Shown: positions 15,660 through 46,615 of the stretch, one piece after another | Layout: the number at the start of each line of letters is the position of its first letter | Position numbering within the stretch: the first letter of the stretch is position 1 | From: Erysipelotrichales bacterium | GTDB lineage: Bacteria; Bacillota_I; Bacilli_A; RF39; UBA660 | DNA length: 64,000 nucleotides | NCBI GenBank assembly: GCA_022508565.1 | Contig: JAFLUY010000006.1 | Coordinates: forward strand, 45,149-109,148 | Reading direction: 5' to 3' | Program-made: the position numbers and the translations under genes | The notes under the pieces: generated by a model | Told to the model about the DNA's origin: nothing | The model's database searches: none | What the model saw: only the letters and a program-made list of their open reading frames with translations

Positions 15660-16073
15660 ATGAAGAATATTGCTATTGATGATTATGTTGGAATGTCTAT
15701 GGCAGAGTTTTTACTTAATTATGCCAATTTAGATGATGATTTATCAACTGAACAAGTATTGGATATGGAGACAGCAAAGTTAACGCATCAAGATTTAACC
15801 AAACTTGGTTTACCTTATATAAAAAGGGTTCCGGTTGAGATTGTCACCGAAAATGATATATCTTCAGGCAAAATACTCATTGTCTATGATTTTAAAAGCA
15901 CAAAAAGTAATAAAAGGTGTGCGCCTTACTTAAGACCTGCATATGTTAAACAACTTGAGGAAGAGCAGTTAGCTTATATGCATCAAGATTGTGATGATGA
16001 TTCAAGACAGTCAAATGAAAAACAAACTTTAATAAGTAAAAAAGAAAAAATTAGAAAGAGGGAATTAAAATGA
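15660..16073 (+). CDS. small hypothetical protein (137 aa) between the T-box terminator and thrS; stop overlaps the thrS ATG (ATGA)
   Basis: GGGGG RBS 5 nt before the ATG at 15660. The ORF-track start at 15615 lies inside the terminator hairpin and was rejected. Confidence 0.55.
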   Translation: MKNIAIDDYVGMSMAEFLLNYANLDDDLSTEQVLDMETAKLTHQDLTKLGLPYIKRVPVEIVTENDISSGKILIVYDFKSTKSNKRCAPYLRPAYVKQLEEEQLAYMHQDCDDDSRQSNEKQTLISKKEKIRKRELK

Positions 16074-17836
16074 TTAATTTTAAAGAAGATGAAAGATTAA
16101 ATAAGTTAAATCATAGTTGTGCACATTTAATGGCACAAGCTGTTAAACACTTATTTCCAGATGCAAAATTCTGGGTAGGTCCAGTTATTGAAACAGGTTT
16201 TTACTATGATATTGATTTAGGAGATAAAGTTATTAATGATGAAGATATTGAAGCTATCTCTAAAGAAATGAAAAAACTTGTAAAAGATGGAAAAAGAATT
16301 GTTAGAAATGAAATTTCTAAAGCAGAAGCATTAGACCAATTTAAAGATGATGAGTATAAAATTGATTTAATATCAAGAATGGACGAAAACGAAGTAACTA
16401 TTAGTACTTATACTCAAGGAGATTTTACTGACCTATGTCGTGGACCACATGTTGATACAGTTAAAGAATGTAAGTATTTTAAACTTATCAAATTTAGTGG
16501 AGCATACTGGAAGGGTGACGTAAATAATAAAGTTTTACAAAGAATCTATGGAGTATGTTTTGATACAGAAGAAGATTTAAATAATTATTTACAAGAACTT
16601 GAAGATGCTAAAAACAGAGATCACAGAAAACTTGGTAAAGAATTAGGCCTTTTCATGACTAGTGATCTTGTAGGCAAGGGTCTTCCAATGTATTTACCAA
16701 ACGGTTATGTAATTTGGGATGAATTCGAAAGATATATTAAAGAAAAAGAAAGAAAATTAGGCTATAAGCATGTTTTAACTCCACCACTTGGAAATGTTGA
16801 GTTATATAAGACAAGTGGACACTGGGAACATTATAAAGATGGAATGTTTCCTAAAATGGAAGTTGAAGGAGAAGAATTTGTACTTCGTCCAATGAATTGT
16901 CCACATCATATGATGATTTATGCAAATGATATTCATTCCTATCGTGATTTACCACTTCGTATTGGAGAAGTTGCAAGAGATTGTCGTTTCGAATCAAGCG
17001 GTTCTTTAAAAGGAATTGAAAGAGTAAGATCATTTTGTCAAAATGATGCGCATCTTTTTGTAACTCCAGAACAAATTGAGTCTGAATTTAAAGCAGTAGT
17101 TAATTTAATATTGGAAGTTTATAAAGATCTTAATATTACCGATTACCACTTTGAGTTATCTTTAAGAGATAAAGAAGATAAAATTAAATATCATCCAGAC
17201 GATGAAATGTGGGATAATGCAGAAAATAAATTAAGAGAAGTATTAGATAGTATTGGTATACCTTATGTTGAAAGAATTGGCGAGGCAGCATTCTATGGAC
17301 CAAAACTTGATGTTCAAGTAAAACCAGCTGTTGGAAACGAATATTCTTTATCAACATGCCAACTAGACTTCTGTTTGCCAGCACGTTTTGATTTAACTTA
17401 TGTAGATAGTGATGGCAATAAAAAGACTCCTGTTGTTCTTCATAGAGCAATTCTTGGTAGTATAGATAGATTCATAGCTTATTATCTAGAAGAGACTAAG
17501 GGAGCTTTACCACTTTGGTTAAGCCCAGTTCAAGTTTCAGTATTACCTGTTAATAATGAATATCATTTAGAATATGCAAAGAAAGTAACAGAATTGTTGC
17601 AAGTTAATGATATAAGAGTAGAACTTGATAGTAGAGAAGAAAAACTAGGTTATCGTATGAGAGAAAGTCAAATGCGTAAAATACCTGTGTCACTAGTCTT
17701 AGGTAATAATGAAAGAGATGAAGAAACTGTAACTTTAAGATTCTATGGTAGTGAAGATAAGAAAACAATGCCTTTAGATGAATTCGTTTCATATATTAAG
17801 GAAAATAAAGAAAAAAGAACTAGAGTTTTAAATTAG
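16070..17836 (+). CDS. thrS: threonyl-tRNA synthetase lacking the N-terminal TGS (N1) domain
   Basis: HSCAHLMAQA editing-domain motif at residue about 15, class II aaRS core, C-terminal anticodon-binding domain. Collinear with ThrRS from a later point in the protein. Confidence 0.95.
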   Translation: MINFKEDERLNKLNHSCAHLMAQAVKHLFPDAKFWVGPVIETGFYYDIDLGDKVINDEDIEAISKEMKKLVKDGKRIVRNEISKAEALDQFKDDEYKIDLISRMDENEVTISTYTQGDFTDLCRGPHVDTVKECKYFKLIKFSGAYWKGDVNNKVLQRIYGVCFDTEEDLNNYLQELEDAKNRDHRKLGKELGLFMTSDLVGKGLPMYLPNGYVIWDEFERYIKEKERKLGYKHVLTPPLGNVELYKTSGHWEHYKDGMFPKMEVEGEEFVLRPMNCPHHMMIYANDIHSYRDLPLRIGEVARDCRFESSGSLKGIERVRSFCQNDAHLFVTPEQIESEFKAVVNLILEVYKDLNITDYHFELSLRDKEDKIKYHPDDEMWDNAENKLREVLDSIGIPYVERIGEAAFYGPKLDVQVKPAVGNEYSLSTCQLDFCLPARFDLTYVDSDGNKKTPVVLHRAILGSIDRFIAYYLEETKGALPLWLSPVQVSVLPVNNEYHLEYAKKVTELLQVNDIRVELDSREEKLGYRMRESQMRKIPVSLVLGNNERDEETVTLRFYGSEDKKTMPLDEFVSYIKENKEKRTRVLN

Positions 17837-17863
17837 TAAGTGAAAAATCACTTACTTTTTTTA
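17837..17863 (+). terminator. intrinsic terminator after thrS (GTAAGTGA-AAAA-TCACTTAC plus T7)
   Basis: Perfect 8-bp stem followed by a T-run. Confidence 0.6.
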
Positions 17864-17955
17864 TGTATTTATAAAAAAATATATTAATAGTCCTAACAAA
17901 ATAGGGCATTTCCAAACAAATTTACATTTCTTTTTAATTTTTTGTTAAAAAGTAG

Positions 17956-17996
17956 TTGACAAATTATTTTGATATTAATATAATGTTAATAACAAG
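17956..17996 (+). promoter_or_regulatory. sigma-A promoter (TTGACA-17-TATAAT) with an overlapping conserved 21-mer TAATATAATGTTAATAACAAG (palindromic core TGTTAATAACA); candidate NrtR operator
   Basis: Consensus hexamers. The 21-mer is identical to a second copy at 22994-23014. Confidence 0.6.
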
Positions 17997-18071
17997 AGAC
18001 AAGACTCTTGAAAAATTTTAAGTTCTATTATTAACAAAATAATAATAACAAATATGAAGGAGAGATGAATT

Positions 18072-18824
18072 ATGAATAATAACAAAGAACAAAGAGAAAT
18101 TTTAAGATTAATTAGAAAGATGAATCCAGAGCAAAGGGAAATTTTTGACGGATTACTTGAAGATGTTAAAAAATTATCAAATGAAGCAAAAGAAAAGGGG
18201 GTAACTGAAAAACAATTTACTAAAGCTTTATTTATAGTAGATATGAATAATGGGTTTGTTAATTTCGGAGCTATGGCTAATACAGAATATAATGCTTTAG
18301 TTCCTGAACAGCTTAAACTAATTGAAAGATTTAGGAAAGAACAACAATTAGTAAACTTCATTTTAGAAGGACATATTGAAGAAGCAGTTGAGTTCTTACT
18401 ATACCCACAACATTGTGTATTAGGAACACCTGAAGCAGAATTAATTCCAGAGTTTAAAGATGAACAAGATAAAGAAAATACAAAAGTTTATTATAAAAAC
18501 TCAATTAATGGAGCATTAAACTTAGACTTACAAATTGATTTAGAAGACTTACGTGATTTAAAAGAAATAGTTGTTTGTGGAGTATGTACAGATCTATGTG
18601 TATTAGATTTTGTAAGAACACTTGCAAGATACTTAGATGAAATTAATCACAAAGTTCAAATCTTTGTTGTAGCAAGTGTATGTAGTACATTTGATGCTCC
18701 AGGACATGAAAGAACTGAAGAAGAAAAACTAGCTTATAGAATGATGAGAGCTGCTGGTGTTGAAGTAGTAGCCAATATGGAAGAACTAGAACAAAGAGAG
18801 AAAGTTTTAGGCTTAGCAGCTTAA
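18072..18824 (+). CDS. pncA: nicotinamidase, isochorismatase family, with a 45-aa N-terminal extension
   Basis: AAGGAGAG RBS. ALFIVDMNNGF and VCGVCTDLCV catalytic-Cys motif. Confidence 0.75.
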   Translation: MNNNKEQREILRLIRKMNPEQREIFDGLLEDVKKLSNEAKEKGVTEKQFTKALFIVDMNNGFVNFGAMANTEYNALVPEQLKLIERFRKEQQLVNFILEGHIEEAVEFLLYPQHCVLGTPEAELIPEFKDEQDKENTKVYYKNSINGALNLDLQIDLEDLRDLKEIVVCGVCTDLCVLDFVRTLARYLDEINHKVQIFVVASVCSTFDAPGHERTEEEKLAYRMMRAAGVEVVANMEELEQREKVLGLAA

Positions 18825-18843
18825 ATATTAGGAGGAAAATATT

Positions 18844-20370
18844 ATGAAATTATATAACGGTTATGAAAATGAAAGATTAGCAAGAAATTATACATTATTA
18901 AGTGATCAATATCAATTCAATATGGGGTGTGGTTATTTAGTATCAGGGAAAAAAGATACAGAAGCAGTGTTTGATGTTTTCTTTAGAAAGGTTCCAACTA
19001 ATGGTGGATATGCTGTAATGGCAGGTTTAGATAAAATAATTCCATTCATTCAAAACTTAAAATTTGATGAAAGAGATTTAGATTATTTTAGAAGAAATAA
19101 TTATCCAGAGGAATACATTGAATATTTAAAAAACTTTAAATTTCATGGAACAATTACTGCTATTCCTGATGGAACACCAGTATTTCCAAATGAGCCATTA
19201 ATCACAGTTAAAGCTCCAATTATTGAAGCTCAAATATTAGAAACTTGTATTTTATCAATAATTAATGGCGCTATGGAGCACGCAACAGGAGCTAGAAGAA
19301 TAATTGAAGCAACTCCAGATAAAAAAGATGTAATTGTTTTTGATGCTTCAGACTTTAGAAAACCTAAAGACCCAAAAGCAGTTATGGAATTTGGTTTAAG
19401 AAGAGCAGATGGACCCGAAGCTGGTATCGATGCTTCTATTTATGGAATTATGGCAGGATGCGCTGGAACTAGTAATGTAATGGTTGCTAATATGCTAAAT
19501 ATTAAAGCAATGGGCACAATGGCTCACTCATGGATTGAAGCATTTGATTCAGAATATGAAGCATTCTTAAACTATGCAAAAATATATCCACAAGCTTGTA
19601 CTTTACTTGTTGATACATTTGATACTTTAAAAAGTGGTGTGCCAAATGCAATTAAAGTATTTGAATATATGAAAGAAAATGGAATGTCTCTTGATAACAT
19701 TGGTATTCGTATAGATTCTGGAGATCTAGCTTATTTATCAAAAGAAGCAAGACGCATGTTAGATGCTGCAGGATTTCCACAAGCTAAAATTTGCTTAAGT
19801 AATGGTCTTAACGCAAATACAATTGAAGATTTAACTAGACAAGGTGCTTGTTTTGACACTTTAGGAGTTGGAGATAATATTAGTAAGCCTGAAGGAAGAA
19901 TGGGTTGTGTATATAAACTTGTTGCTGAAAATGTAAATGGTATATGGCAACCAAAAATAAAATTAAGTGATTCTGAAATTAAAATTGTTAACCCAGATCA
20001 TAAAACATTATATCGCGCTTATGATAAAACCACGGGTTATGCACTAGCAGATATAATGACAAGACAAGGAGAAATCGTTAGCAATGATGATTTAATCATT
20101 ATTGATCCAGCTAATGCAAGCAAAAGTACAAAACTTAATAATTTCGAATTAAGAGAATTACATAAACCTATATTTGTAAATGGTGAACTAGTTTATGATG
20201 ACCCTAATATCGAAGTTAAAAAAGATTATTGTAATAACGAAATGGCTACACTTTATCCAGAAGTTAGAAGAACTACTAGTCCTCATCTATATCATGTGTC
20301 AGGTACAGAGGATTATGTTAAATTTAAACAAGAATTAATTGAACATCATAAAAGCCTAGTGTTAAAATAA
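18844..20370 (+). CDS. pncB: nicotinate phosphoribosyltransferase
   Basis: AGGAGG RBS. 508 aa; the N-terminal YQFNMGCGY region and overall length fit the NAPRTase family. Confidence 0.85.
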   Translation: MKLYNGYENERLARNYTLLSDQYQFNMGCGYLVSGKKDTEAVFDVFFRKVPTNGGYAVMAGLDKIIPFIQNLKFDERDLDYFRRNNYPEEYIEYLKNFKFHGTITAIPDGTPVFPNEPLITVKAPIIEAQILETCILSIINGAMEHATGARRIIEATPDKKDVIVFDASDFRKPKDPKAVMEFGLRRADGPEAGIDASIYGIMAGCAGTSNVMVANMLNIKAMGTMAHSWIEAFDSEYEAFLNYAKIYPQACTLLVDTFDTLKSGVPNAIKVFEYMKENGMSLDNIGIRIDSGDLAYLSKEARRMLDAAGFPQAKICLSNGLNANTIEDLTRQGACFDTLGVGDNISKPEGRMGCVYKLVAENVNGIWQPKIKLSDSEIKIVNPDHKTLYRAYDKTTGYALADIMTRQGEIVSNDDLIIIDPANASKSTKLNNFELRELHKPIFVNGELVYDDPNIEVKKDYCNNEMATLYPEVRRTTSPHLYHVSGTEDYVKFKQELIEHHKSLVLK

Positions 20371-20386
20371 AGAAAGGAATAAAGAC

Positions 20387-20989
20387 ATGAAAACTCGTAA
20401 GATTATAAGTGAGTTAGAGAGTATTAGAGATGAATTAAGCATCCTTAGTATAAGAAAAATACCAGATCTTGAGAAAAACTTTTTAACTGTTGAAACATAT
20501 CAAATTATTTTAAAAGATAATACAATTTTTAACCGCCAAAAACTTGTTAAGAATAAAAGAGATGGAAGTGCTGTTGTAGTTGTACCAATAACTAAAGATA
20601 ATAAGTCTTTAGTTATTGTGCAACCACGTGTATTTTCTGAATCAGGCATAGGTGTTGAAATTCCTGCTGGTTATATTGATCCTGGAGAGACTCCAGAAGA
20701 TGCAGCTATTAGAGAGTTAAGAGAAGAAACAGGGTATGATTGTGAAAAACTAATTCCACTTAAATCTTACTATCAAGATCAAGGTATAAGTGGAGCACAC
20801 AATACATGCTTTTTAGCTCTAGGTTGTGAGAAGAAATATGATCAAAGGTTAGATCGTGATGAGTACATAAAATATTTAGAATGTACATTTAATGATTTAG
20901 TTTATTTAGTTAATAATGGTATTATTAATGATGCTAATGGTATAATAGCTATAAACGAAGCAAAGAAGTATTTGCGAAAACTAAGATAG
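20387..20989 (+). CDS. NUDIX hydrolase (ADP-ribose pyrophosphatase-like)
   Basis: Nudix box GYIDPGETPEDAAIRELREETGY. Confidence 0.8.
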   Translation: MKTRKIISELESIRDELSILSIRKIPDLEKNFLTVETYQIILKDNTIFNRQKLVKNKRDGSAVVVVPITKDNKSLVIVQPRVFSESGIGVEIPAGYIDPGETPEDAAIRELREETGYDCEKLIPLKSYYQDQGISGAHNTCFLALGCEKKYDQRLDRDEYIKYLECTFNDLVYLVNNGIINDANGIIAINEAKKYLRKLR

Positions 20990-20999
20990 AGGTGAAATA

Positions 21000-22925
21000 G
21001 TGGAAAAGAAGTTTGGATTTATTCGTGTTGGAGCAGTAGTTCCAGAATTAAGAATTAGTGATGTAACATTTAATGTATCTGAGATTAAGAAGATGATGGA
21101 TGAAGCTATGAATGCTGGTGTTGAAATAACTTTATTTCCAGAACTTGCTTTAACTGGATATACATGTGCAGATCTTTTCTTAAATGAGCATCTTTTAAAT
21201 AAATCTTTAGAAGGTTTAATTGAACTTAAAAAATATACTAAAAAAGTTAAAGGTGTATTTATTGTTGGTTTACCAATGAAAGCAGATAATCAATTATTTA
21301 ATGTTGGTGCTGTTTTAGAAAATGGCCATATTTTAGGAATTGTTCCTAAAACTTATATTCCTAACTATGGCGAATTCTATGAAAAAAGATGGTTTAGTGA
21401 AGACAATAGAAGAATAAGTGATAAGTTAATTATTGATGGAGAAACTATTCCTTTTAAAACTAATATGCTATTTCAAGAAAAAGGGGACGTTAGACGTACA
21501 TTTGGAATTGAAATATGTGAAGATTTATGGTGTACATATCCACCTTCTAATGATTTAACTATTCGAGGCGCTAAGATGATTTTTAACTTATCAGCATCTA
21601 ATGAAATTATCGGAAAAGAAAACTATCGCAAGAACCTAGTTAAGAGTCAATCTGAAAAAACAATAAGTGCCTATATTTATGCATCTGCTGGAATAAATGA
21701 GTCAACTACTGATTTGGTATTCTCGGGAGCGTCATTTATTTATGAAAATGGTAAGATGTTAGCACAAAATGAAAGATTTGATTTTGAATCTAACTTAATT
21801 TATAACGATGTAGATTTAGCTAGAATTGAAAGTATGCGTTATAAAGATATTTCTTATATGGGTGTTATAAAAGATAAAGATAAAGTTTATGATACTATCT
21901 ATTTTGAAGGATATAATCCAGAAAATGAACTAGTTAGATCTTATGAACAAACTCCATTTGTTCCAAGCAGTCAAGCACATAGAAATGAAAGATGTGAAGA
22001 AATATTAAACATTCAAGCACATGCTTTAGCTAAACGTTTAAAAGCAACTGGTATAAAGAAGAGTGTAGTAGGTATATCAGGTGGACTTGATTCTACTTTA
22101 GCATTCTTAGTTGTTATAAAAGCTTATGATATTTTAGGTTTAGATCACAAAGATATTTATGGTATTACAATGCCAGGTTTTGGTACAACTAATAGAACTT
22201 ATACAAACGCTTGTGATTTTGTTAAACTTTATGGTGCAACTTTAAAGGAAATAAATATCAAAGATGCATGTTTACAGCATTTTAAAGATATTGATCATGA
22301 TCCAGCTAATTTAGATGTTACATATGAAAATGTTCAAGCAAGAGAGAGAACTCAAATATTAATGGATTATGCTAATAAGATAGGTGGATTAGTAATTGGT
22401 ACAGGAGACTTATCAGAACTTGCTTTAGGATGGTGTACTTATAATGGAGACCATATGAGTATGTATGCAGTTAATGTATCAATTCCAAAAACGCTTGTTA
22501 GATATTTGGTTCAATATTATGGTGAAACTGAAGAAAGTGAAAAGAGAAGAAAAATCATTATGGATATCTTGGATACTCCAGTGTCTCCAGAATTATTACC
22601 TCCAAGTGAAAATGGAGAAATTTTACAACAAACTGAAAGTATTGTTGGTCCATATATATTGCATGATTTCTATCTTTATCATTTCTTAAGATATGGAGCA
22701 TCACCTGAAAAAGTGAAATATTTAGCAATCAATACTTTTAAAGATGGATATGATGAAAAGACTATAGATAAGTGGCTAACATTTTTTATCAAAAGATTCT
22801 TTAGTCAACAATTTAAAAGAAGTTGTATTCCAGATGGGCCAAAGGTTGGAACAATTAGTATTTCACCAAGAGGCGATTTAAGAATGCCAAGTGATGCATC
22901 TTCAGCTGATTGGTTATATAAATAA
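21000..22925 (+). CDS. nadE: glutamine-dependent NAD+ synthetase (nitrilase domain plus NAD synthase domain); GTG start
   Basis: GAGGTGA RBS. N-terminal CN-hydrolase region (FIRVGA..., EICEDLW), C-terminal SGGLDS PP-loop. Confidence 0.9.
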   Translation: MEKKFGFIRVGAVVPELRISDVTFNVSEIKKMMDEAMNAGVEITLFPELALTGYTCADLFLNEHLLNKSLEGLIELKKYTKKVKGVFIVGLPMKADNQLFNVGAVLENGHILGIVPKTYIPNYGEFYEKRWFSEDNRRISDKLIIDGETIPFKTNMLFQEKGDVRRTFGIEICEDLWCTYPPSNDLTIRGAKMIFNLSASNEIIGKENYRKNLVKSQSEKTISAYIYASAGINESTTDLVFSGASFIYENGKMLAQNERFDFESNLIYNDVDLARIESMRYKDISYMGVIKDKDKVYDTIYFEGYNPENELVRSYEQTPFVPSSQAHRNERCEEILNIQAHALAKRLKATGIKKSVVGISGGLDSTLAFLVVIKAYDILGLDHKDIYGITMPGFGTTNRTYTNACDFVKLYGATLKEINIKDACLQHFKDIDHDPANLDVTYENVQARERTQILMDYANKIGGLVIGTGDLSELALGWCTYNGDHMSMYAVNVSIPKTLVRYLVQYYGETEESEKRRKIIMDILDTPVSPELLPPSENGEILQQTESIVGPYILHDFYLYHFLRYGASPEKVKYLAINTFKDGYDEKTIDKWLTFFIKRFFSQQFKRSCIPDGPKVGTISISPRGDLRMPSDASSADWLYK

Positions 22926-22926
22926 A

Positions 22927-22960
22927 AGATAATGTATAAATCATTATCTTTTTATACTTT
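22927..22960 (+). terminator. intrinsic terminator after nadE (AAGATAATG-TATAAAT-CATTATCTT plus T-run)
   Basis: 9-bp stem followed by TTTTTAT. Confidence 0.5.
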
Positions 22961-22973
22961 TTATAATTAATTA

Positions 22974-23014
22974 TTGACAAATTTATATGTTTTTAATATA
23001 ATGTTAATAACAAG
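22974..23014 (+). promoter_or_regulatory. second copy of the TTGACA-17-TATAAT promoter with the conserved 21-mer TAATATAATGTTAATAACAAG; candidate NrtR operator
   Basis: Identical 21-mer and TTGACAAATT -35 context as at 17956-17996. Confidence 0.6.
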
Positions 23015-23028
23015 GAAGAAGAGGTAGT

Positions 23029-24111
23029 ATGAGTAAATTAAAATTAATCGTTTTAGGTAGCGCTAAAGAATTGGGGTCAAAAGTTAATAAAGAGTTAAAA
23101 AAGATAAACAAGACAGAAACTGATTATTTAGTTAAGATTACTGAATCTCGTTTTAGCAATGGTGAGGGTAAGGTTCAAATTAATGAAAATGTTTCTAACT
23201 GTGATGTTTATATTATTGGGGATGTTGGAAACTATGGTGTGAGTTATCCGATGCATGGAAGAGAACATTTTATGAGTCCAGATGAACATTACGAAGATAT
23301 TAAAAGAGTTATTTCAGCAACAAGTGGACATGCTGCAAAGATAAATATTGTTATGCCACTATTATATGAATCAAGACAACATAAAAGAAGAGGGAATGAA
23401 TCTTTAGACTGTGCAATATCACTTCAAGAACTTGAAAAAATGGGTGTAGATAATATTGTTACATTTGATGCACATGACCCAAGTATCTGTAATGCTATTC
23501 CAAGACTACCATTCGAAAATTTTTATCCAACATATACAATTCTTAGTAAGTTTATTGAAAATGAAGATATACACGATTTACTTGTTGTAAGTCCTGATAT
23601 GGGAGCAATGGATAGAGCAAGAGTTTATGCTGATATGTTAAATGTCGATGTTGGTGTATTTTATAAAAGAAGAGACTTATCAAAAGTAGTTAATGGTAAG
23701 AATCCGATTGTTGAACACATGTATATGGGAGCTGATCCTAAGGGAAAGGATATCATCGTTGTTGATGATATGATTGCAAGTGGAGCATCAATGATTGAAG
23801 TTGCTGAAAACTTAAAAGAAAAAGGTGCAAATAATATTTATTTAATTGCAACATTCTCACTATTTACTGAAGGCACAGATGTATTTGTAAATGCATATAA
23901 AAAAGGATTATTTACAAAAGTTTACTCAACTAATCTTTCTTATATACCTGAAGAATTAGTAAGTGAAGATTGGTTTATAGATGTTGATTGTTCAAAATTT
24001 ATGGCTAATATAATTAATACATTAAATAAAAAAGATGATTTAGATGAACTTTGGAATGTAAAACCAAAATTAATGGAAAAACTTCAAAATAAAAAAAGTT
24101 CTAAAGAATAA
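23029..24111 (+). CDS. prs: ribose-phosphate pyrophosphokinase family protein (divergent, 360 aa)
   Basis: RFSNGEGKVQINENV...DVYIIG N-terminus, PRPP-binding loop IVVDDMIASGASM. Confidence 0.7.
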   Translation: MSKLKLIVLGSAKELGSKVNKELKKINKTETDYLVKITESRFSNGEGKVQINENVSNCDVYIIGDVGNYGVSYPMHGREHFMSPDEHYEDIKRVISATSGHAAKINIVMPLLYESRQHKRRGNESLDCAISLQELEKMGVDNIVTFDAHDPSICNAIPRLPFENFYPTYTILSKFIENEDIHDLLVVSPDMGAMDRARVYADMLNVDVGVFYKRRDLSKVVNGKNPIVEHMYMGADPKGKDIIVVDDMIASGASMIEVAENLKEKGANNIYLIATFSLFTEGTDVFVNAYKKGLFTKVYSTNLSYIPEELVSEDWFIDVDCSKFMANIINTLNKKDDLDELWNVKPKLMEKLQNKKSSKE

Positions 24112-24129
24112 TTACGAGGAGGTGCAATC

Positions 24130-24708
24130 ATGAGGATTGGAATATTTGGAGGATCATTTAATCCGCCTCATAAAATGCATGAAGCAATAGCTAAGTATTT
24201 TATAGCTGAAAATTTACTTGATAAAGTTATATTTGTTCCAACCGGAAGCAAATATAAATATAAAAGCAATTTATTAAGTGATCAAGATAGGTTTAATATG
24301 GTTAAACTTATAACTGATAAATATGATTACTTTGATGTATCAGCATATGAACTTAAAAGTAAAGTTGTGTATACTTGTGAAACTTTAGAACATTATAAAA
24401 ATAAAAATCCAAATGATGAAATATATTTTATATGTGGTTTAGATAATTTAAGTTATATAGATTCTTGGAAGAATGCAGAATATATACTAGAAAATTATAA
24501 AATACTTGTTATAAGAAGAAATACAGATGATTTAAATACAGTTTTAAAAAAACTTGAAAAATATAAAGATAATATTATTGTTGTTGATATGAAAGAAACT
24601 GATATCTCATCAACAAAAATACGTGAAAGTATAAATAATATAGATGGTAATTATTTAGACGAAGACGTTTTAAAATATATTAAAGATAATAATTTATATG
24701 AGAGTTAG
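24130..24708 (+). CDS. nadD: nicotinate-nucleotide adenylyltransferase
   Basis: GGAGG RBS. IGIFGGSFNPPHKMH (HxGH-type) motif. Confidence 0.85.
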   Translation: MRIGIFGGSFNPPHKMHEAIAKYFIAENLLDKVIFVPTGSKYKYKSNLLSDQDRFNMVKLITDKYDYFDVSAYELKSKVVYTCETLEHYKNKNPNDEIYFICGLDNLSYIDSWKNAEYILENYKILVIRRNTDDLNTVLKKLEKYKDNIIVVDMKETDISSTKIRESINNIDGNYLDEDVLKYIKDNNLYES

Positions 24709-24717
24709 AGGGATAAT

Positions 24718-25209
24718 ATGGAAATATTTGAAAGTATTATTTTAAAATTAAAAGCACAAGGTAAATATGTTTCTACCATGGAATCTTGTACAGGTGGTGG
24801 AGTTGCAAATGAGATAACAAACCATAGTGGTGCAAGTGAGGTGCTTAAGTTCTCGGCTGTTACTTACTCAAATGAATTTAAAATTAAAATGGGTGTTAGT
24901 AGTGCTGTAATTGATAAGTATTCAGTATATTCTATGGAAACAGCTAAAGAGATGGCTAAGAATATAAGTGAATTTACGGGAAGCGATTATGGAATTGGTG
25001 TAACTGGTAAAATTAATACACCAGATCCGGAAAATCCTCGTGGAGAAGACGATGAAATATTTATTTCTATATATGATGCAAATAAGAAAGTTTTCCATCC
25101 TTTAAAAGTAGAAGCTATATCTACTTTAGAAAGAGATGAAAATAAGGGAAAAATTATTACTGCTATAGGCAAGTTATTTTTAGAAATATTAGAAGAAGAG
25201 GATAAATAA
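24718..25209 (+). CDS. pncC: CinA C-terminal domain protein / NMN amidohydrolase
   Basis: 163 aa. The TMESCTGGGVANEIT motif is typical of CinA_C. Confidence 0.75.
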   Translation: MEIFESIILKLKAQGKYVSTMESCTGGGVANEITNHSGASEVLKFSAVTYSNEFKIKMGVSSAVIDKYSVYSMETAKEMAKNISEFTGSDYGIGVTGKINTPDPENPRGEDDEIFISIYDANKKVFHPLKVEAISTLERDENKGKIITAIGKLFLEILEEEDK

Positions 25210-26042
25210 TGTTAGGTGCAATTATTGGTGATGTAGCTGGTTCCATTTATGAAGTACTAGAAGTAAATTATAAAAAAGAACATCAAGAACATCGCCCATA
25301 TGAAGAAAGAATAAAAATTTTATCTCAAGATACACCATTGTTTACTGATGAATGCTCTTATACAGATGATACAGTTTTAACATTAGCTTTATATGATGCT
25401 ATAAAAAATGGCAATAAGGATTATGAAAAGTATTTAAGAGAGTATGGAAATAAAGAAGTATCTTTGGGTATGGATAAATATGGTAGAAGCCGCTTTGGTA
25501 AGGGGTTCGTAGGATGGCTTAATGGAGATGAAGGAAATAGTTTAGGTAATGGAGCAGCAATGCGTATTAGTCCGGTAGGTTATTTATTTGATAATATTGA
25601 TACTATAAAGCGTGAATCTAAAAATGCGACTATTCCAAGTCACAATCATATAGATTCCATAAAAGCTGCTGAATGTATATCAACCAGTATCTATTTATTA
25701 AGAAATGGTTATAACAAAGAAAAATTAAAAGAATATATTGAAAATAATTATTATAAATTAGATTATGATTTAGAAGATTTACAAAGAAATTATACATTTT
25801 CAAGTAAATGTATAGACTCAGTTCCTCAAAGCTTATTTGTGTTTTTAAAATCTGAGTCTTTTGAAGATGCAATAAGGAAAGCATTATCAATTGGAGGAGA
25901 TGCAGATACTATCGCCGCTATAGTTGGTTCTCTAGCTGAAAGTTTATATGGTATACCCGATGAAATCATTATAAATGTTAAAAAGTATTTAACAGATGAA
26001 CAGCTTGCCTTACTTGGAACATATTATGAAAACATGTTATAA
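25209..26042 (+). CDS. ADP-ribosylglycohydrolase family protein
   Basis: N-terminal MLGAIIGDVAGSIYE and C-terminal GGDADTIAAIVGSLAE motifs. Confidence 0.8.
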   Translation: MLGAIIGDVAGSIYEVLEVNYKKEHQEHRPYEERIKILSQDTPLFTDECSYTDDTVLTLALYDAIKNGNKDYEKYLREYGNKEVSLGMDKYGRSRFGKGFVGWLNGDEGNSLGNGAAMRISPVGYLFDNIDTIKRESKNATIPSHNHIDSIKAAECISTSIYLLRNGYNKEKLKEYIENNYYKLDYDLEDLQRNYTFSSKCIDSVPQSLFVFLKSESFEDAIRKALSIGGDADTIAAIVGSLAESLYGIPDEIIINVKKYLTDEQLALLGTYYENML

Positions 26043-26066
26043 TCAAAATAGAAAAAAGAGGTATTT

Positions 26067-26885
26067 ATGAAAGAATATAAAACTGAAAAAGAATTCTTAG
26101 ATTCTTATAATAAAAACGATTTTGATTTACTAAGTGTAACTGCTGATATATTAGTATTAAGTGTATCTAGCTATGAAAGTGATAATTATCGTAAAACAGA
26201 TGAAAAACATATGTCAGTATTATTAGTAAAAAGAGATGACTATCCATTTAAAAATAAATGGTGTTTCCCAGGTGGTTTTGTTGGATATGATGAGGATTTA
26301 GATAAAGCACCTGCGAGAATCTTAAAAAATGAAACTAATTTAAGTGATATTTATCTAGAACAATTATATACTTATGGGGATCCAAAAAGAGATCCAAGAA
26401 TGCGTATTATTTCAACTGCTTATATGGCATTAATAGATAAAAATAGACTTGATTGTAAATTAAATGAAAGTGCTTCTTGGTTTGATGTTAAAATACTTGA
26501 TGATGGTAAGATAGTTGATGTTTTCTTGAATAATGGAGAAACAGAAATTAAAGTTAAAATAGAAAAAATTTTAAGAGATAAAACTACAGACCGTTATGAC
26601 TTTAAAGTGATAGAAAATAAAGACTTAGCATTTGACCATGCTAAAGTATTATTAAGCGGTATAGAAAGACTTAGAAATAAAGTTAATTATACAGATATAG
26701 TATTTAACATGATGCCTGAGTATTTCACATTAGGTGAATTACAATCGGTTTATGAAGTTATTTTAAATAAAAAATTGTTAGATCCAGCATTTAGAAGAAT
26801 TATTGAACCAAAAGTTCAAAAAACTGATAAGATGCGTACAGGAGAAGGACATCGTCCATCTGTATTGTTTAAATATAAAAAATAA
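26067..26885 (+). CDS. nrtR: NrtR-like transcriptional regulator (Nudix domain plus C-terminal winged HTH)
   Basis: Nudix-like WCFPGGFVGYDEDLDKAPARILKNETN region and a C-terminal wHTH-like region. Sits at the end of the NAD salvage operon. Confidence 0.65.
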   Translation: MKEYKTEKEFLDSYNKNDFDLLSVTADILVLSVSSYESDNYRKTDEKHMSVLLVKRDDYPFKNKWCFPGGFVGYDEDLDKAPARILKNETNLSDIYLEQLYTYGDPKRDPRMRIISTAYMALIDKNRLDCKLNESASWFDVKILDDGKIVDVFLNNGETEIKVKIEKILRDKTTDRYDFKVIENKDLAFDHAKVLLSGIERLRNKVNYTDIVFNMMPEYFTLGELQSVYEVILNKKLLDPAFRRIIEPKVQKTDKMRTGEGHRPSVLFKYKK

Positions 26886-26906
26886 CACTTTTAAGTGTTA
26901 TTTTTT
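26881..26906 (+). terminator. intrinsic terminator (AACACTT-TTAA-AAGTGTT plus T6)
   Basis: Perfect hairpin followed by a T-run. A near-identical hairpin lies at 38114-38141. Confidence 0.6.
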
Positions 26907-27008
26907 ATATTTTTTGTATCATAACTAACAGTTATAATTAGTTATGAAATATATGTATTTTATTTATGATTTAAATGTTGGTATATTTAAGTTGTAGGAG
27001 GGATACAT

Positions 27009-27554
27009 ATGATTATAGGTATAACCGGTAAAAGTGGCACAGGTAAAACTACTGTAGCAAATTACTTAGCAAGTAAGTTAGGTTATATAGTTATACATGG
27101 TGATGAGCTTGCTCATAAAGTACTAGATATAAATCTTTACAATGAAGTATTATCTTGGTTTGGAGTACCTGAGGAAAATACAGTTGATAGAAAAAGATTA
27201 GGTAGACTTCTATTCAGTGATAAAACCTTAATGCATAAATATAATATTTTAATTAATGAACAAATTATGTCACATTTTTATAAAAAATATGATTTAAAAG
27301 ATAATTACATTATTGATTGGAATTTTCTTCCAATAAGTGATTTTAATAATAAGTGTGATAAAAAAATTTTACTTGTTTTAAATGATGAAGAAAGAAAACA
27401 AAGAGTTCTTAAAAGAGATAATATAACCGATGAATACTTCAATAGAAGAGATGATTATGGTTTAGAATATAACGAGTCAGATTTTGATTTTGTTTTAACT
27501 AGTGATGAAATTATGAGAAGCGAATATATATTAGATAGTTTAAAGGATGTGTGA
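27009..27554 (+). CDS. coaE: dephospho-CoA kinase-like P-loop kinase
   Basis: Walker A GITGKSGTGKTT. IHGDELAHKVLD and DRKRLGRLLFSD resemble the CoaE pattern. Confidence 0.65.
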   Translation: MIIGITGKSGTGKTTVANYLASKLGYIVIHGDELAHKVLDINLYNEVLSWFGVPEENTVDRKRLGRLLFSDKTLMHKYNILINEQIMSHFYKKYDLKDNYIIDWNFLPISDFNNKCDKKILLVLNDEERKQRVLKRDNITDEYFNRRDDYGLEYNESDFDFVLTSDEIMRSEYILDSLKDV

Positions 27555-43508: not shown

Positions 43509-44012
43509 ATGTTATTTACTGAAGAAGTAAAAGATATGAGTGAATTAGTTGATAAATTAAGTACATTCGACCAAGATTTTGGAAAAATAAAAGTCTGCGT
43601 AGTTTGTTTTATCTTTGATAAAAATGGGTATGTAATTTTAAATAGAAGAGGCCCAGGAGCGAGAGATGAAATTGGAAAGCTTCAAGCTATAGGCGGATCT
43701 GTTAATAACAGTGATGCAAATTTCCGTGAAGCAATGGTGCGTGAAATTAGAGAAGAAGCTGGAGTAAACGCACATGTAGAACTAGGAGAATTCTTAGGAG
43801 CTCAGCTAAATCCGGCAATCGATTCAATGAGCAAAGAATTAATTAATTGGATTATTCTTGGATATAAAGGTAATCTAGTAGAAGGTGATGTTGAAAACAT
43901 GGAACCTGATCGTTGCTCTGGATTTGAAAGAGGATACATGACTGAATTTAATAGAGAAGAATTATCTATAACTGTTGATAGATTTATACAAAAAATGTTA
44001 AATGAGAAGTAG
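43509..44012 (+). CDS. NUDIX hydrolase
   Basis: Nudix box GGSVNNSDANFREAMVREIREEAGV. Confidence 0.75.
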   Translation: MLFTEEVKDMSELVDKLSTFDQDFGKIKVCVVCFIFDKNGYVILNRRGPGARDEIGKLQAIGGSVNNSDANFREAMVREIREEAGVNAHVELGEFLGAQLNPAIDSMSKELINWIILGYKGNLVEGDVENMEPDRCSGFERGYMTEFNREELSITVDRFIQKMLNEK

Positions 44013-45136: not shown

Positions 45137-46615
45137 ATGGAGATGAAAGAAATAATTGAAAGTATATCTAGAAGAGGAAACGGCTCAATATATCTTGGTG
45201 TAGTAGGAGCTGTTAGAACTGGTAAATCAACATTTATAAAAAGAGTTATAGAAAACTTAGTTGTTCCAAATATAGAAGATGAATATGAAAAAAAGAAATG
45301 TTTAGATGAAATACCTCAATCTTCTAATGGTAAACAAATAATGACAACTGAACCTAAATTTGTTCCGTCTAATGGAGCTAATATAAAAATAGATGATTTT
45401 ACTACTAGTATAAAGTTGATTGACTGTGTAGGTTTTGTAATTGATAATTCAATTGGTTATGAAGATAATGAAGGTAACCCTAGACTAGTTAATACTCCTT
45501 GGTACAGCGAAGCTATTCCATTTATAGAAGCTGCTGAAATTGGAACAGAAAAAGTTATAAAAGATCATTCAACAATTGGTATTGTTATAACTTCCGATGG
45601 TTCATTTAATGATTTTAGAAGAAATGATTATTTAGATGCAGAAGAAAAAGTTATTAATGAACTTAAAGGATTGAATAAACCTTTTATTGTTTTACTTAAT
45701 ACAACTAAACCAAATGATGAGTCTACAATAAAAATCAAACACGAAATAGAAGAAAAATATGAAGTAGAAGTTATGCCAATTGATATTGAAAATATGGGTA
45801 AAAAAGAAATCAATGACGTTTTAAGAAGTGCTGTTGATGAATTCCCAGTTGTTGATGTTAATGTTAAACTACCAGAATGGATACATGTACTTTCAAATAA
45901 AAACGAAGTTAAATTTCATTATTTAGAAAAAATAAAAGAAAGTGTTATTAATGTTAATAAAATAAAAGATGTTAATAACATAATTAATTACTATCAAGAT
46001 AGTCCTTATATTAGTAGAGCTTATATTTCAAATGTTGATATAGGTTCTGGTATTGTATCTTTAAATCTTGAAAGTCCAGAGGACTTATATGATGAAACTT
46101 TAAAAGGAATACTTGGCGATACTGATATTAATAAAGCTACTATCTTAAAACTATTAAGTGAATATAAAGAATCACGTGAAGAAACAAGTTCTTTAAGCGA
46201 TGCTTTAAAAATGGTTTATAGCACTGGCTATGGAATAGTTTATCCAACATTGAAAGATATGAAACTAGAAAAACCAGAAGTTATTAAACAAGGTAGTAGA
46301 TATGGCGTTAGACTTAATGCCAAAGCAACAAGTATTCATATGATTAAAGTTGATGTTGAATCAACATTTGAACCAATCATAGGTTCTGAAGTTCAATCAA
46401 AAGAACTAATTGATTATATTATGAAAGATTATGCATCTGATCCAACAAGTATTTGGAAGAGTGAGATCTTCGGTAGAAGTTTAGATAATATTGTAAAAGA
46501 AGGCATTCAAGCAAAACTTTCGATGATGAAAGATACAACAAGATACAAATTATCTTCAACTGTTACCAAAATTGTTAATAAAGGAACAGATAAATTAATT
46601 GCAATAGTATTATAA
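45137..46615 (+). CDS. spoIVA: stage IV sporulation protein A
   Basis: N-terminus GSIYLGVVGAVRTGKSTFIKRVIENLVVPNI...QIMTTEPKFVP...NTPWYSEAIPF...EAAEIGT.KVI.DHSTIG.VIT.DG matches SpoIVA motif for motif, including the Walker A. Confidence 0.9.
   Translation: MEMKEIIESISRRGNGSIYLGVVGAVRTGKSTFIKRVIENLVVPNIEDEYEKKKCLDEIPQSSNGKQIMTTEPKFVPSNGANIKIDDFTTSIKLIDCVGFVIDNSIGYEDNEGNPRLVNTPWYSEAIPFIEAAEIGTEKVIKDHSTIGIVITSDGSFNDFRRNDYLDAEEKVINELKGLNKPFIVLLNTTKPNDESTIKIKHEIEEKYEVEVMPIDIENMGKKEINDVLRSAVDEFPVVDVNVKLPEWIHVLSNKNEVKFHYLEKIKESVINVNKIKDVNNIINYYQDSPYISRAYISNVDIGSGIVSLNLESPEDLYDETLKGILGDTDINKATILKLLSEYKESREETSSLSDALKMVYSTGYGIVYPTLKDMKLEKPEVIKQGSRYGVRLNAKATSIHMIKVDVESTFEPIIGSEVQSKELIDYIMKDYASDPTSIWKSEIFGRSLDNIVKEGIQAKLSMMKDTTRYKLSSTVTKIVNKGTDKLIAIVL

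Follow-up and report, generated by a model that had tools for sequence, protein, structure and literature searches.

NrtR regulators consist of an N-terminal Nudix fold and a C-terminal winged helix, and their genes cluster with those of nicotinamide adenine dinucleotide (NAD) metabolism or with genes for ADP-ribose or pentoses. For most NrtRs, the motif is a palindrome of 21 bp whose core is GT-N7-AC, several groups being divergent, and ADP-ribose acts as an anti-repressor, an effector role shown for two NrtRs (PMC2330246). A 2008 study already gave the rationale that ADP-ribose yields ribose phosphate and then phosphoribosyl pyrophosphate (PRPP), and counted prs and draG among the regulon members (PMC2330246). 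Here, we analyze a gene cluster in a stretch of 64,000 nucleotides (the 64-kb window) of contig JAFLUY010000006.1 from an Erysipelotrichales bacterium. This cluster is likely to be under NrtR control and to serve NAD salvage and the recycling of ADP-ribose, and we compared it with the closest known systems.

The NrtR cluster of Clostridium acetobutylicum, also a Firmicute, combines NrtR with pncA, pncB, nadD and nadE, has predicted sites at two cluster positions and controls salvage I and the universal NAD steps (PMC2330246). The comparison with it is one of gene content and order; nrtR is the last gene here and the first there, and the window cluster also has prs, pncC, a Nudix hydrolase of the ADP-ribose type and an ADP-ribosylglycohydrolase (ARH). 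In the prs-nadV system of Shewanella oneidensis (PMC2330246; 3GZ5, 3GZ6, 3GZ8), the regulator likewise joins a Nudix-like domain to a winged helix, a dedicated prs paralogue belongs to the regulon and one promoter carries multiple operator sites. ADP-ribose relieves DNA binding by this NrtR in electrophoretic mobility shift assays (PMC2330246). However, S. oneidensis is a gamma-proteobacterium with the NadV salvage route, and its 21-bp motif has GT-N7-AC where the sites here have TTAA-N7-TTAA. The validated NrtR site of Mycobacterium smegmatis, GTTTTCGA-N7-TCGAAAAC, is a 23-bp palindrome with an 8-N7-8 layout and GTT...AAC ends (PMC6800001), comparable to GTTWTTAA-N7-TTAAWAAC here. The mycobacterial protein is an auto-repressor (PMC6800001); its system differs in the de novo genes nadABC, a divergent promoter, acetylation control and the inner arm bases. 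In Streptomyces, an ADP-ribosylglycohydrolase gene (draG) adjoins nrtR under a predicted NrtR site (PMC2330246), and de-ADP-ribosylation is thereby linked to NrtR; no NAD biosynthesis genes are present there, whereas the ARH gene here stands inside a full salvage operon. Finally, the best match of the window regulator in the PDB is AraR of Bacteroides thetaiotaomicron (BtAraR; 5BS6, with a DNA complex also solved), which also has two sites at some promoters, although it senses L-arabinose and controls sugar genes. The BtAraR dimer covers 25 bp, with its recognition helices in adjacent major grooves and its wings in the flanking minor grooves (PMC4666351).

The window cluster is organized in two co-directional units, pncA-pncB-Nudix-nadE (operon 1) and prs-nadD-pncC-ARH-nrtR (operon 2), as a first-pass annotation of this DNA had proposed. 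Together, they cover the steps from nicotinamide through nicotinate, nicotinate mononucleotide and nicotinate adenine dinucleotide to NAD, along with deamidation of nicotinamide mononucleotide (NMN), hydrolysis of ADP-ribose and synthesis of PRPP. Each unit is preceded by a consensus promoter:

17956-17961, + strand: -35 hexamer TTGACA of P1, promoter of operon 1 (12/12 consensus, 17-nt spacer)
17979-17984, + strand: -10 hexamer TATAAT of P1 (consensus match)
22974-22979, + strand: -35 hexamer TTGACA of P2, promoter of operon 2 (consensus match)
22997-23002, + strand: -10 hexamer of P2 (consensus match)

These TTGACA-17-TATAAT promoters (17956-17984 and 22974-23002) are the sole 12/12 sigma-70 consensus promoters within 17700-27200. 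Judging only from the spacing, transcription from P1 would start at about 17991-17992. The two operon heads share TTGACAAATT, 10 non-identical bases and TAATATAATGTTAATAACAAG (17956-17996 and 22974-23014), with 31 of 41 positions identical. Repeat and operator searches of the source genome were confined to the window, where the 21-mer TAATATAATGTTAATAACAAG has two exact copies (17976-17996 and 22994-23014) and no further match at up to three mismatches (0.05 expected). The identical 21-mer overlapping the -10 at both heads, reported in the first-pass annotation, is thus confirmed as exact copies.

The core of this 21-mer had been taken to be the 11-mer TGTTAATAACA. It is a true palindrome about a central A and has four exact copies in the window (0.2 expected); however, it is most likely not the functional unit, and it corresponds to the right arm of a larger dyad plus two spacer bases. 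This dyad, the 23-bp palindrome STTWTTAA-N7-TTAAWAAS, is found in promoters of 60 of 80 related genomes. The relatives were obtained by scanning one genome per species, giving 80 loci with NrtR proteins 63-82% identical to the window protein, nearly all from uncultured gut 'Bacilli', and an NrtR identical to the window protein is recorded for an Erysipelotrichales metagenome-assembled genome; the promoter-anchored collection holds 68 promoter-operators from 60 loci plus the window. The left arm T(G)TT(W)TTAA (T.TT.TTAA) is conserved among the 68 promoters even though it was absent from the search pattern, and the promoter spacer is 17 nt in every one of them. The dyad can also be written as a 25-mer, TGTTWTTAAYA-NNN-TGTTAATAACA. 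Four sites were located at the two operons of the window:

17930-17952, unstranded: O0, auxiliary operator, CTTTTTAA-TTTTTTG-TTAAAAAG, 0 mismatches to STTWTTAA-N7-TTAAWAAS
17970-17994, unstranded: O1, main operator of operon 1, TGATATTAA-TATAATG-TTAATAACA (core 17971-17993, 1 mismatch)
18026-18050, unstranded: O2, leader operator, TATTATTAA-CAAAATA-ATAATAACA (core 18027-18049, 2 mismatches)
22988-23012, unstranded: O1', operator of operon 2, TGTTTTTAA-TATAATG-TTAATAACA (core 22989-23011, 0 mismatches)

The 11-mer occupies 17984-17994 of O1. O0 keeps the 23-bp symmetry and lacks the 11-bp sub-palindrome, which argues that the 23-mer is the functional unit; thus, the operator is most likely the 23-25-bp palindrome (T)GTTWTTAA-N7-TTAAWAAC(A) rather than the 11-bp core. 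Widening the 11-bp palindrome to 21 bp about its own centre left the outer positions unpaired, the downstream side being a variable hairpin, and this candidate was rejected. The 10 bases between the shared blocks, previously regarded as a variable spacer, do differ between the two heads, but they hold the left arm of the operator (TGATATTAA and TGTTTTTAA, respectively). The 7-bp dyad spacer contains the -10 hexamer, and therefore a bound repressor would block RNA polymerase. Sites with at most one mismatch number two in the window against 0.07 expected.

As for the remaining two 11-mer copies, those at 43700 and 45970, both are intragenic, lack the left arm and have no promoter context, so they were rejected as operators and ascribed to chance or codon usage. 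The first (43700-43710) lies inside a separate small Nudix gene (43509-44012), probably by chance. At 45940-45985, in a spoIVA-like gene, the operator-like words TGTTATTAA, TGTTAATAAAA and TGTTAATAACA are clustered; they coincide with a Val-Ile-Asn-Val-Asn and Val-Asn-Asn codon run (GTT AAT) and are probably codon-driven.

The likeness of the two operon heads, with 31 of 41 identical positions, would also be expected if the promoter copies stemmed from a recent within-genome duplication and were not under selection. This is scarcely credible: the flanks and the 10-nt spacer differ, and the 21-mer is unchanged in 17 of the 68 promoters, all from other species, and has two or fewer changes in 57 of 68, although the NrtR proteins are only 63-82% identical.

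Next to O1, operon 1 has a second and a third dyad. O0 adjoins the -35 on its upstream side, with its centre 41 bp from that of O1 and at about -51 from the presumed start. O0-like sites (three or fewer mismatches) occur at -40 to -42 in 39 of the 68 related promoters, compared with 2.6% of random windows. The centre of O2 is 56 bp from that of O1, at about +47, with the pncA start codon some 22 nt further downstream; 60 of 68 promoters have an O2-like site (two or fewer mismatches) downstream, at +54 to +57 in most cases, whereas 1.9% of random windows reach this match quality. Neither O0 nor O2 was found at operon 2, where the leader is merely about 20 nt long.

To analyze which genes follow the operator, we considered both the related loci and a motif-first scan, in which metagenome contigs were searched with the exact 23-mer, independently of nrtR or any other gene. 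Related loci totalling 1.31 Mb contain 40 perfect sites, every one of them in an NAD cluster, and 214 sites with two or fewer mismatches, 111 of which lie upstream of pncA. The motif-first scan gave 120 metagenome stretches, most of them short, and 88 contain an NAD enzyme gene; as the first open reading frame after the site, pncA occurs 58 times, nadD 9 times and prs 3 times, and ammonia-type NadE is also found at this position. The operator is therefore specific to NAD genes and is not the generic promoter feature that the first-pass annotation had named as a possible objection.

This specificity also bears on the view that the element is merely a strong, clade-conserved promoter (A/T-rich upstream element, -35 and -10) with no repressor site, whose copies are alike through consensus. 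P1 and P2 both match the consensus at 12/12 positions, and O0 is A/T-rich and sits at the position of an UP element, as such a promoter would have it. However, the palindrome recurs without a promoter, as O2 in the leaders and, in several loci, ahead of pncB. Neither the conserved left arm nor the GTTAATAAC that follows the -10 is a promoter element, and the motif is restricted to NAD genes. We consider a promoter-only explanation highly improbable.

The candidate for binding the operator is encoded by the last gene of operon 2:

26067-26885, + strand: nrtR, Nudix-like effector domain (PF00293, 1.5e-11, residues 45-144) with a C-terminal NrtR-type winged helix (PF21906 NrtR_WHD, 3.3e-15, residues 212-269)

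The protein has the architecture of the NrtR family, and both domains aligned with BtAraR (5BS6, 1.9e-27), S. oneidensis NrtR (3GZ5/3GZ6, 4e-21) and EF2700 (2FML, 3.8e-19). The earlier call of a Nudix-winged helix regulator stands, since the DNA-binding domain is present in the profile search. The Nudix box is degenerate (RILKNETNL instead of REUxEExGU), which fits a ligand-sensing domain; like its counterpart in the majority of NrtR proteins (PMC2330246), this domain very probably has no catalytic activity. Clustering with NAD genes, a trait of the family, is seen in the window and in nearly all 80 related loci. The 23-bp dyad also agrees with the palindromic operators of about 21-25 bp in NrtR target promoters, and the 23-25-bp size with the footprint of the BtAraR dimer. 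These features suggest that the 26067 protein is the operator-binding protein.

Several observations weigh against this assignment or its details. First, the protein scores 154 bits with the NCBIfam NrtR equivalog model NF050029, whose cut-off is 400; by its profile scores, it is a family-level relative and not an equivalog of characterised NrtR. Second, the operator has AA-N7-TT at +/-4 and +/-5 from the dyad centre instead of GT-N7-AC, and GT and AC occur at the outer ends only (GT-N19-AC). The comparison with published motifs thus fails for the core and holds for the 8-N7-8 layout, which is that of the mycobacterial site. Third, the base-contacting residues Lys179, Arg180 and Asn181 of BtAraR align with Asp, Pro and Ala, so the recognition details are not transferable from the BtAraR structure; the Asp/Pro/Ala residues fit a different operator core. 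Fourth, only 23 of the 120 motif-first stretches contain nrtR, most stretches being short. Lastly, the O1-O2 distance spans 52-59 bp among relatives, and strict helical phasing, hence looping, is unsupported.

These departures would be explained if the palindrome were the operator of another NAD-responsive regulator encoded elsewhere (NiaR-like or other), with NrtR acting on other sites or solely as an ADP-ribose sensor. The core departs from the GT-N7-AC of most NrtR groups (PMC2330246), the protein stays under the equivalog cut-off and many motif-first stretches are without nrtR. On the other hand, nrtR is the sole DNA-binding protein gene of the cluster, and it is co-located with the sites in 60 of 60 operator-bearing loci, which were fetched through nrtR. 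The dyad has the size of an NrtR-family dimer footprint (PMC4666351) and shares its layout with a validated NrtR site (PMC6800001). Moreover, several NrtR groups are documented as having divergent motifs, and most motif-first stretches are too short to reach nrtR. Control by a different regulator is therefore judged unlikely, and binding of the palindrome by NrtR remains the preferred reading.

The leader of operon 1 has a further conserved element:

17993-18010, + strand: 5'-terminal stem-loop of the operon 1 transcript, CAAGAG-ACAAGA-CTCTTG (hairpin of -6.4 kcal/mol)

This stem-loop directly follows O1, within one or two bases of the presumed transcription start. The leaders were analyzed by folding each sequence, by shuffles and by a pair table anchored on the 5' arm. 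Most related leaders have the hairpin with differing stem sequences (mean z -3.0, against -1.0 in the next 30 nt as control), and three stem positions show compensatory pairs (A-T/G-C, G-C/A-T and A-T/T-A/C-G, G-U included). An alignment by MAFFT with RNAalifold was ungapped and yielded no structure, owing to differing loop lengths. The stem-loop is missing where the leader is short, as in operon 2. By analogy with Firmicute mRNA decay, it is probably a 5'-terminal stabiliser of the operon 1 mRNA. It may alternatively be an attenuator; the window hairpin was not called as a terminator and is followed by A's rather than a U-tract, so attenuation is not favoured. Rfam gave zero matches in the leaders or across the whole cluster, and a known riboswitch was rejected on this basis.

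Control at the RNA level, with the leader hairpin and O2 folding into a riboswitch or attenuator responsive to an NAD-related metabolite, could account for the covarying stem-loop after O1. A hairpin can form from O2 in RNA, some stems are followed by T-rich runs, and tandem operator-plus-hairpin modules occur in several loci. However, O0 and the left arm of O1 carry the same motif upstream of the presumed start, operon 2 has the O1-type site without a leader structure, and the leader lacks any Rfam family match; furthermore, the window stem is short, with A's rather than a U-tract after it. An RNA switch in place of the operator is thus very unlikely, and the hairpin may have an RNA-level role in addition to repression by NrtR.

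Variations of this leader arrangement were seen in relatives. Longer pncA leaders with a second operator-plus-hairpin module are present in L027, L034, L053, L055, L058, L075 and L079, and in L055 O2 lies inside a long-range pairing, AAGTGATGA...TCATCACTT, which has T's after it. In many relatives, among them L002:3570-3625, L004, L017:2317 and L054:4308, a hairpin, a T-run and another operator copy lie between pncA and pncB. The window has a pncA-pncB gap of 19 nt with no operator site in it.

The limits of the two units are marked by intrinsic terminators after the upstream gene, nadE and nrtR, and a candidate promoter lies before nrtR:

17835-17866, + strand: intrinsic terminator of the upstream gene (16070-17836), 9-bp stem then T-run, at the start of the regulatory region
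22924-22960, + strand: AT-rich intrinsic terminator ending operon 1, 11-bp stem (-9.3 kcal/mol, z -3.0) then U-runs
26880-26915, + strand: intrinsic terminator ending operon 2, 10-bp stem AAAUAACACU/AGUGUUAUUU then U-run
26014-26043, + strand: candidate nrtR promoter, TTGGAA-18 nt-extended -10 TGTTATAAT (26035-26043), 10/12 match with TG

The candidate promoter sits within the 3' end of the ARH gene. In 36 of the 80 related loci, TGnTATAAT occurs no more than 90 nt ahead of nrtR, often as ATGTTATAATCAAA, close to the window sequence. Thus, nrtR is the last gene of the second operon, as the first-pass annotation had it, but it is probably also transcribed from its own weak extended -10 promoter besides read-through from P2. 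Beyond the terminator, strong structure (z -6.5) was seen at 26919-27010, in front of the dephospho-CoA kinase gene; a long hairpin there covers the Shine-Dalgarno sequence and the start codon of that gene and has no Rfam match.

The nine earlier gene calls are all upheld by Pfam and NCBIfam profile searches, which were complemented by comparison with the PDB; some motifs were read from the translations. Besides nrtR, the genes are as follows:

18072-18824, + strand: pncA-like nicotinamidase, isochorismatase fold (PF00857, 2.9e-19)
18844-20370, + strand: pncB, nicotinate phosphoribosyltransferase (NF006695, 549 bits, cut-off 469)
20387-20989, + strand: Nudix hydrolase with an intact Nudix box, GYIDPGE-TPEDAAI-RELREETGY, matching GX5EX7REUXEEXGU (Pfam)
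21000-22925, + strand: nadE, glutamine-dependent NAD synthetase (NF002730, 872 bits, cut-off 473)
23029-24111, + strand: prs, ribose-phosphate pyrophosphokinase of the PRK06827 subfamily (NF005299, 449 bits, cut-off 327)
24130-24708, + strand: nadD, nicotinate-nucleotide adenylyltransferase (TIGR00482, 158 bits, cut-off 112)
24718-25209, + strand: pncC, stand-alone CinA C-terminal domain, NMN deamidase family (PF02464, 1.3e-26; TIGR00199, 83 bits, cut-off 69)
25209-26042, + strand: ADP-ribosylglycohydrolase, ARH/DraG (PF03747, 1e-30, residues 1-249)

The substrates of all of these enzymes are predicted ones. The best PDB match of the PncA-like protein is the pyrazinamidase/nicotinamidase of P. 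horikoshii (1ILW, 7e-11). Compared with 1ILW, the Asp of VDM, the HCV motif, the Lys and the Cys of CGVCTDxCV (CGVxTxxCV) are retained, so the catalytic Asp/Lys/Cys triad and the metal-binding His of nicotinamidases are present; the first metal ligand is Glu instead of Asp, and the NCBIfam PncA model scores 31, below its cut-off of 174. An N-terminal extension of about 50 residues (18072-18220), charged and apparently helical, is also present in this protein; the closest relatives share it, while more distant ones begin directly at the isochorismatase domain. The Nudix hydrolase of operon 1 is probably an ADP-ribose pyrophosphatase; its best PDB matches are such enzymes (8WV3 and 9JAX, 2.5e-19), and it falls below the NCBIfam cut-offs of TIGR00052 (35 bits, cut-off 79.6) and NudE (55, cut-off 169). 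ARH has both metal-binding motifs, TDD and GGDADT, and its best PDB match is Lmo0067 (8ZA7, 1e-12). It may act on protein-ADP-ribose, O-acetyl-ADP-ribose or another compound; a literature search for Lmo0067, the closest solved ARH, gave no paper.

Among the 80 related loci, the cluster pncA-pncB-Nudix-(nadE)-(prs)-nadD-(ARH)-pncC-nrtR is conserved, and ARH is present in 12. The regulon is broader in relatives than in the window. In metagenome stretches, the first genes behind the operator include a 5'-nucleotidase-nucleoside hydrolase fusion (L094), a P-loop kinase (L098), a 164-residue cytidylyltransferase resembling NMN adenylyltransferase (L104, L129, L146, L174) and NAD kinase (L161, L187). 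A family of about 155 residues with no Pfam match (L026:9487-9951, L052:9475-9951, also L021 and L023) stands directly behind an operator-bearing promoter and just before nrtR; its F(L/I)DDSFWSGKTRDV motif is similar to a PRPP-binding loop, and the family has no homologue in the window. A second family without a Pfam match, of 105-145 residues and 23-37% mutual identity, separates the operator from pncA or prs in many relatives and is absent from the window (L001:6333-6743, L017:6488-6886, L066:661-1071, L078:8380-8850 and metagenome L103, L108, L116, L153, L196). Finally, radical-SAM proteins of about 290-345 residues are encoded by the first gene behind the 23-bp operator in metagenome L082, L124, L150, L154 and L193 and in genome L009:5019-6056; we know of no link between these proteins and NAD metabolism.

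In the mechanism that we propose, P1 would drive pncA-pncB-Nudix-nadE and P2 would drive prs-nadD-pncC-ARH, with possible read-through into nrtR. The NrtR dimer would most likely bind the 23-25-bp palindrome, and dimers on the O1-type sites of both promoters would occlude the -10. At P1, O0 and O2 probably strengthen repression, by cooperative binding or as a roadblock, O2 being placed in the leader directly before the ribosome-binding site. When NAD is consumed, free ADP-ribose would accumulate and bind the presumably dead Nudix domain of NrtR; by analogy with the described NrtRs, it would act as the inducer, so that the ligand-bound repressor leaves the DNA and both operons are expressed. 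ARH would free ADP-ribose from modified substrates, the active Nudix enzyme would cut it to AMP and ribose-5-phosphate, and Prs would make PRPP. Nicotinamide would be converted to NAD via PncA, PncB, NadD and NadE, with PncC feeding NMN into this route. The coupling of de-ADP-ribosylation to NAD resynthesis, already suggested for this locus, is reasonable and has been proposed before for NrtR regulons (PMC2330246).

A bolder interpretation is that the clade has a distinct NrtR architecture, with three dyads at fixed positions (about -51, -10 and +47), TTAA-N7-TTAA replacing GT-N7-AC as the core, and a covarying 5' stem-loop that is obligatory; together, these could form a higher-order repression complex or a combined DNA/RNA switch. 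The operator-sharing genes, namely the two small-protein families without Pfam domains, one with the PRPP-loop-like motif, and the radical-SAM proteins, could be missing enzymes of NAD or ADP-ribose recycling. We regard this interpretation as doubtful.

In summary, the control system is probably the one described in 2008, and the knowledge of how NrtR works is unchanged. What is new is the operator consensus together with the three-site layout, to which the conserved leader stem-loop and a few uncharacterised operator-sharing genes in relatives are added. The cluster would be a near-textbook case of ADP-ribose-sensing control of NAD recycling in a widespread uncultured gut lineage, with every salvage and recycling step under one operator type. 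It would provide a clade operator consensus for regulon prediction, a defined three-site promoter and a short list of uncharacterised genes found behind this operator in relatives.

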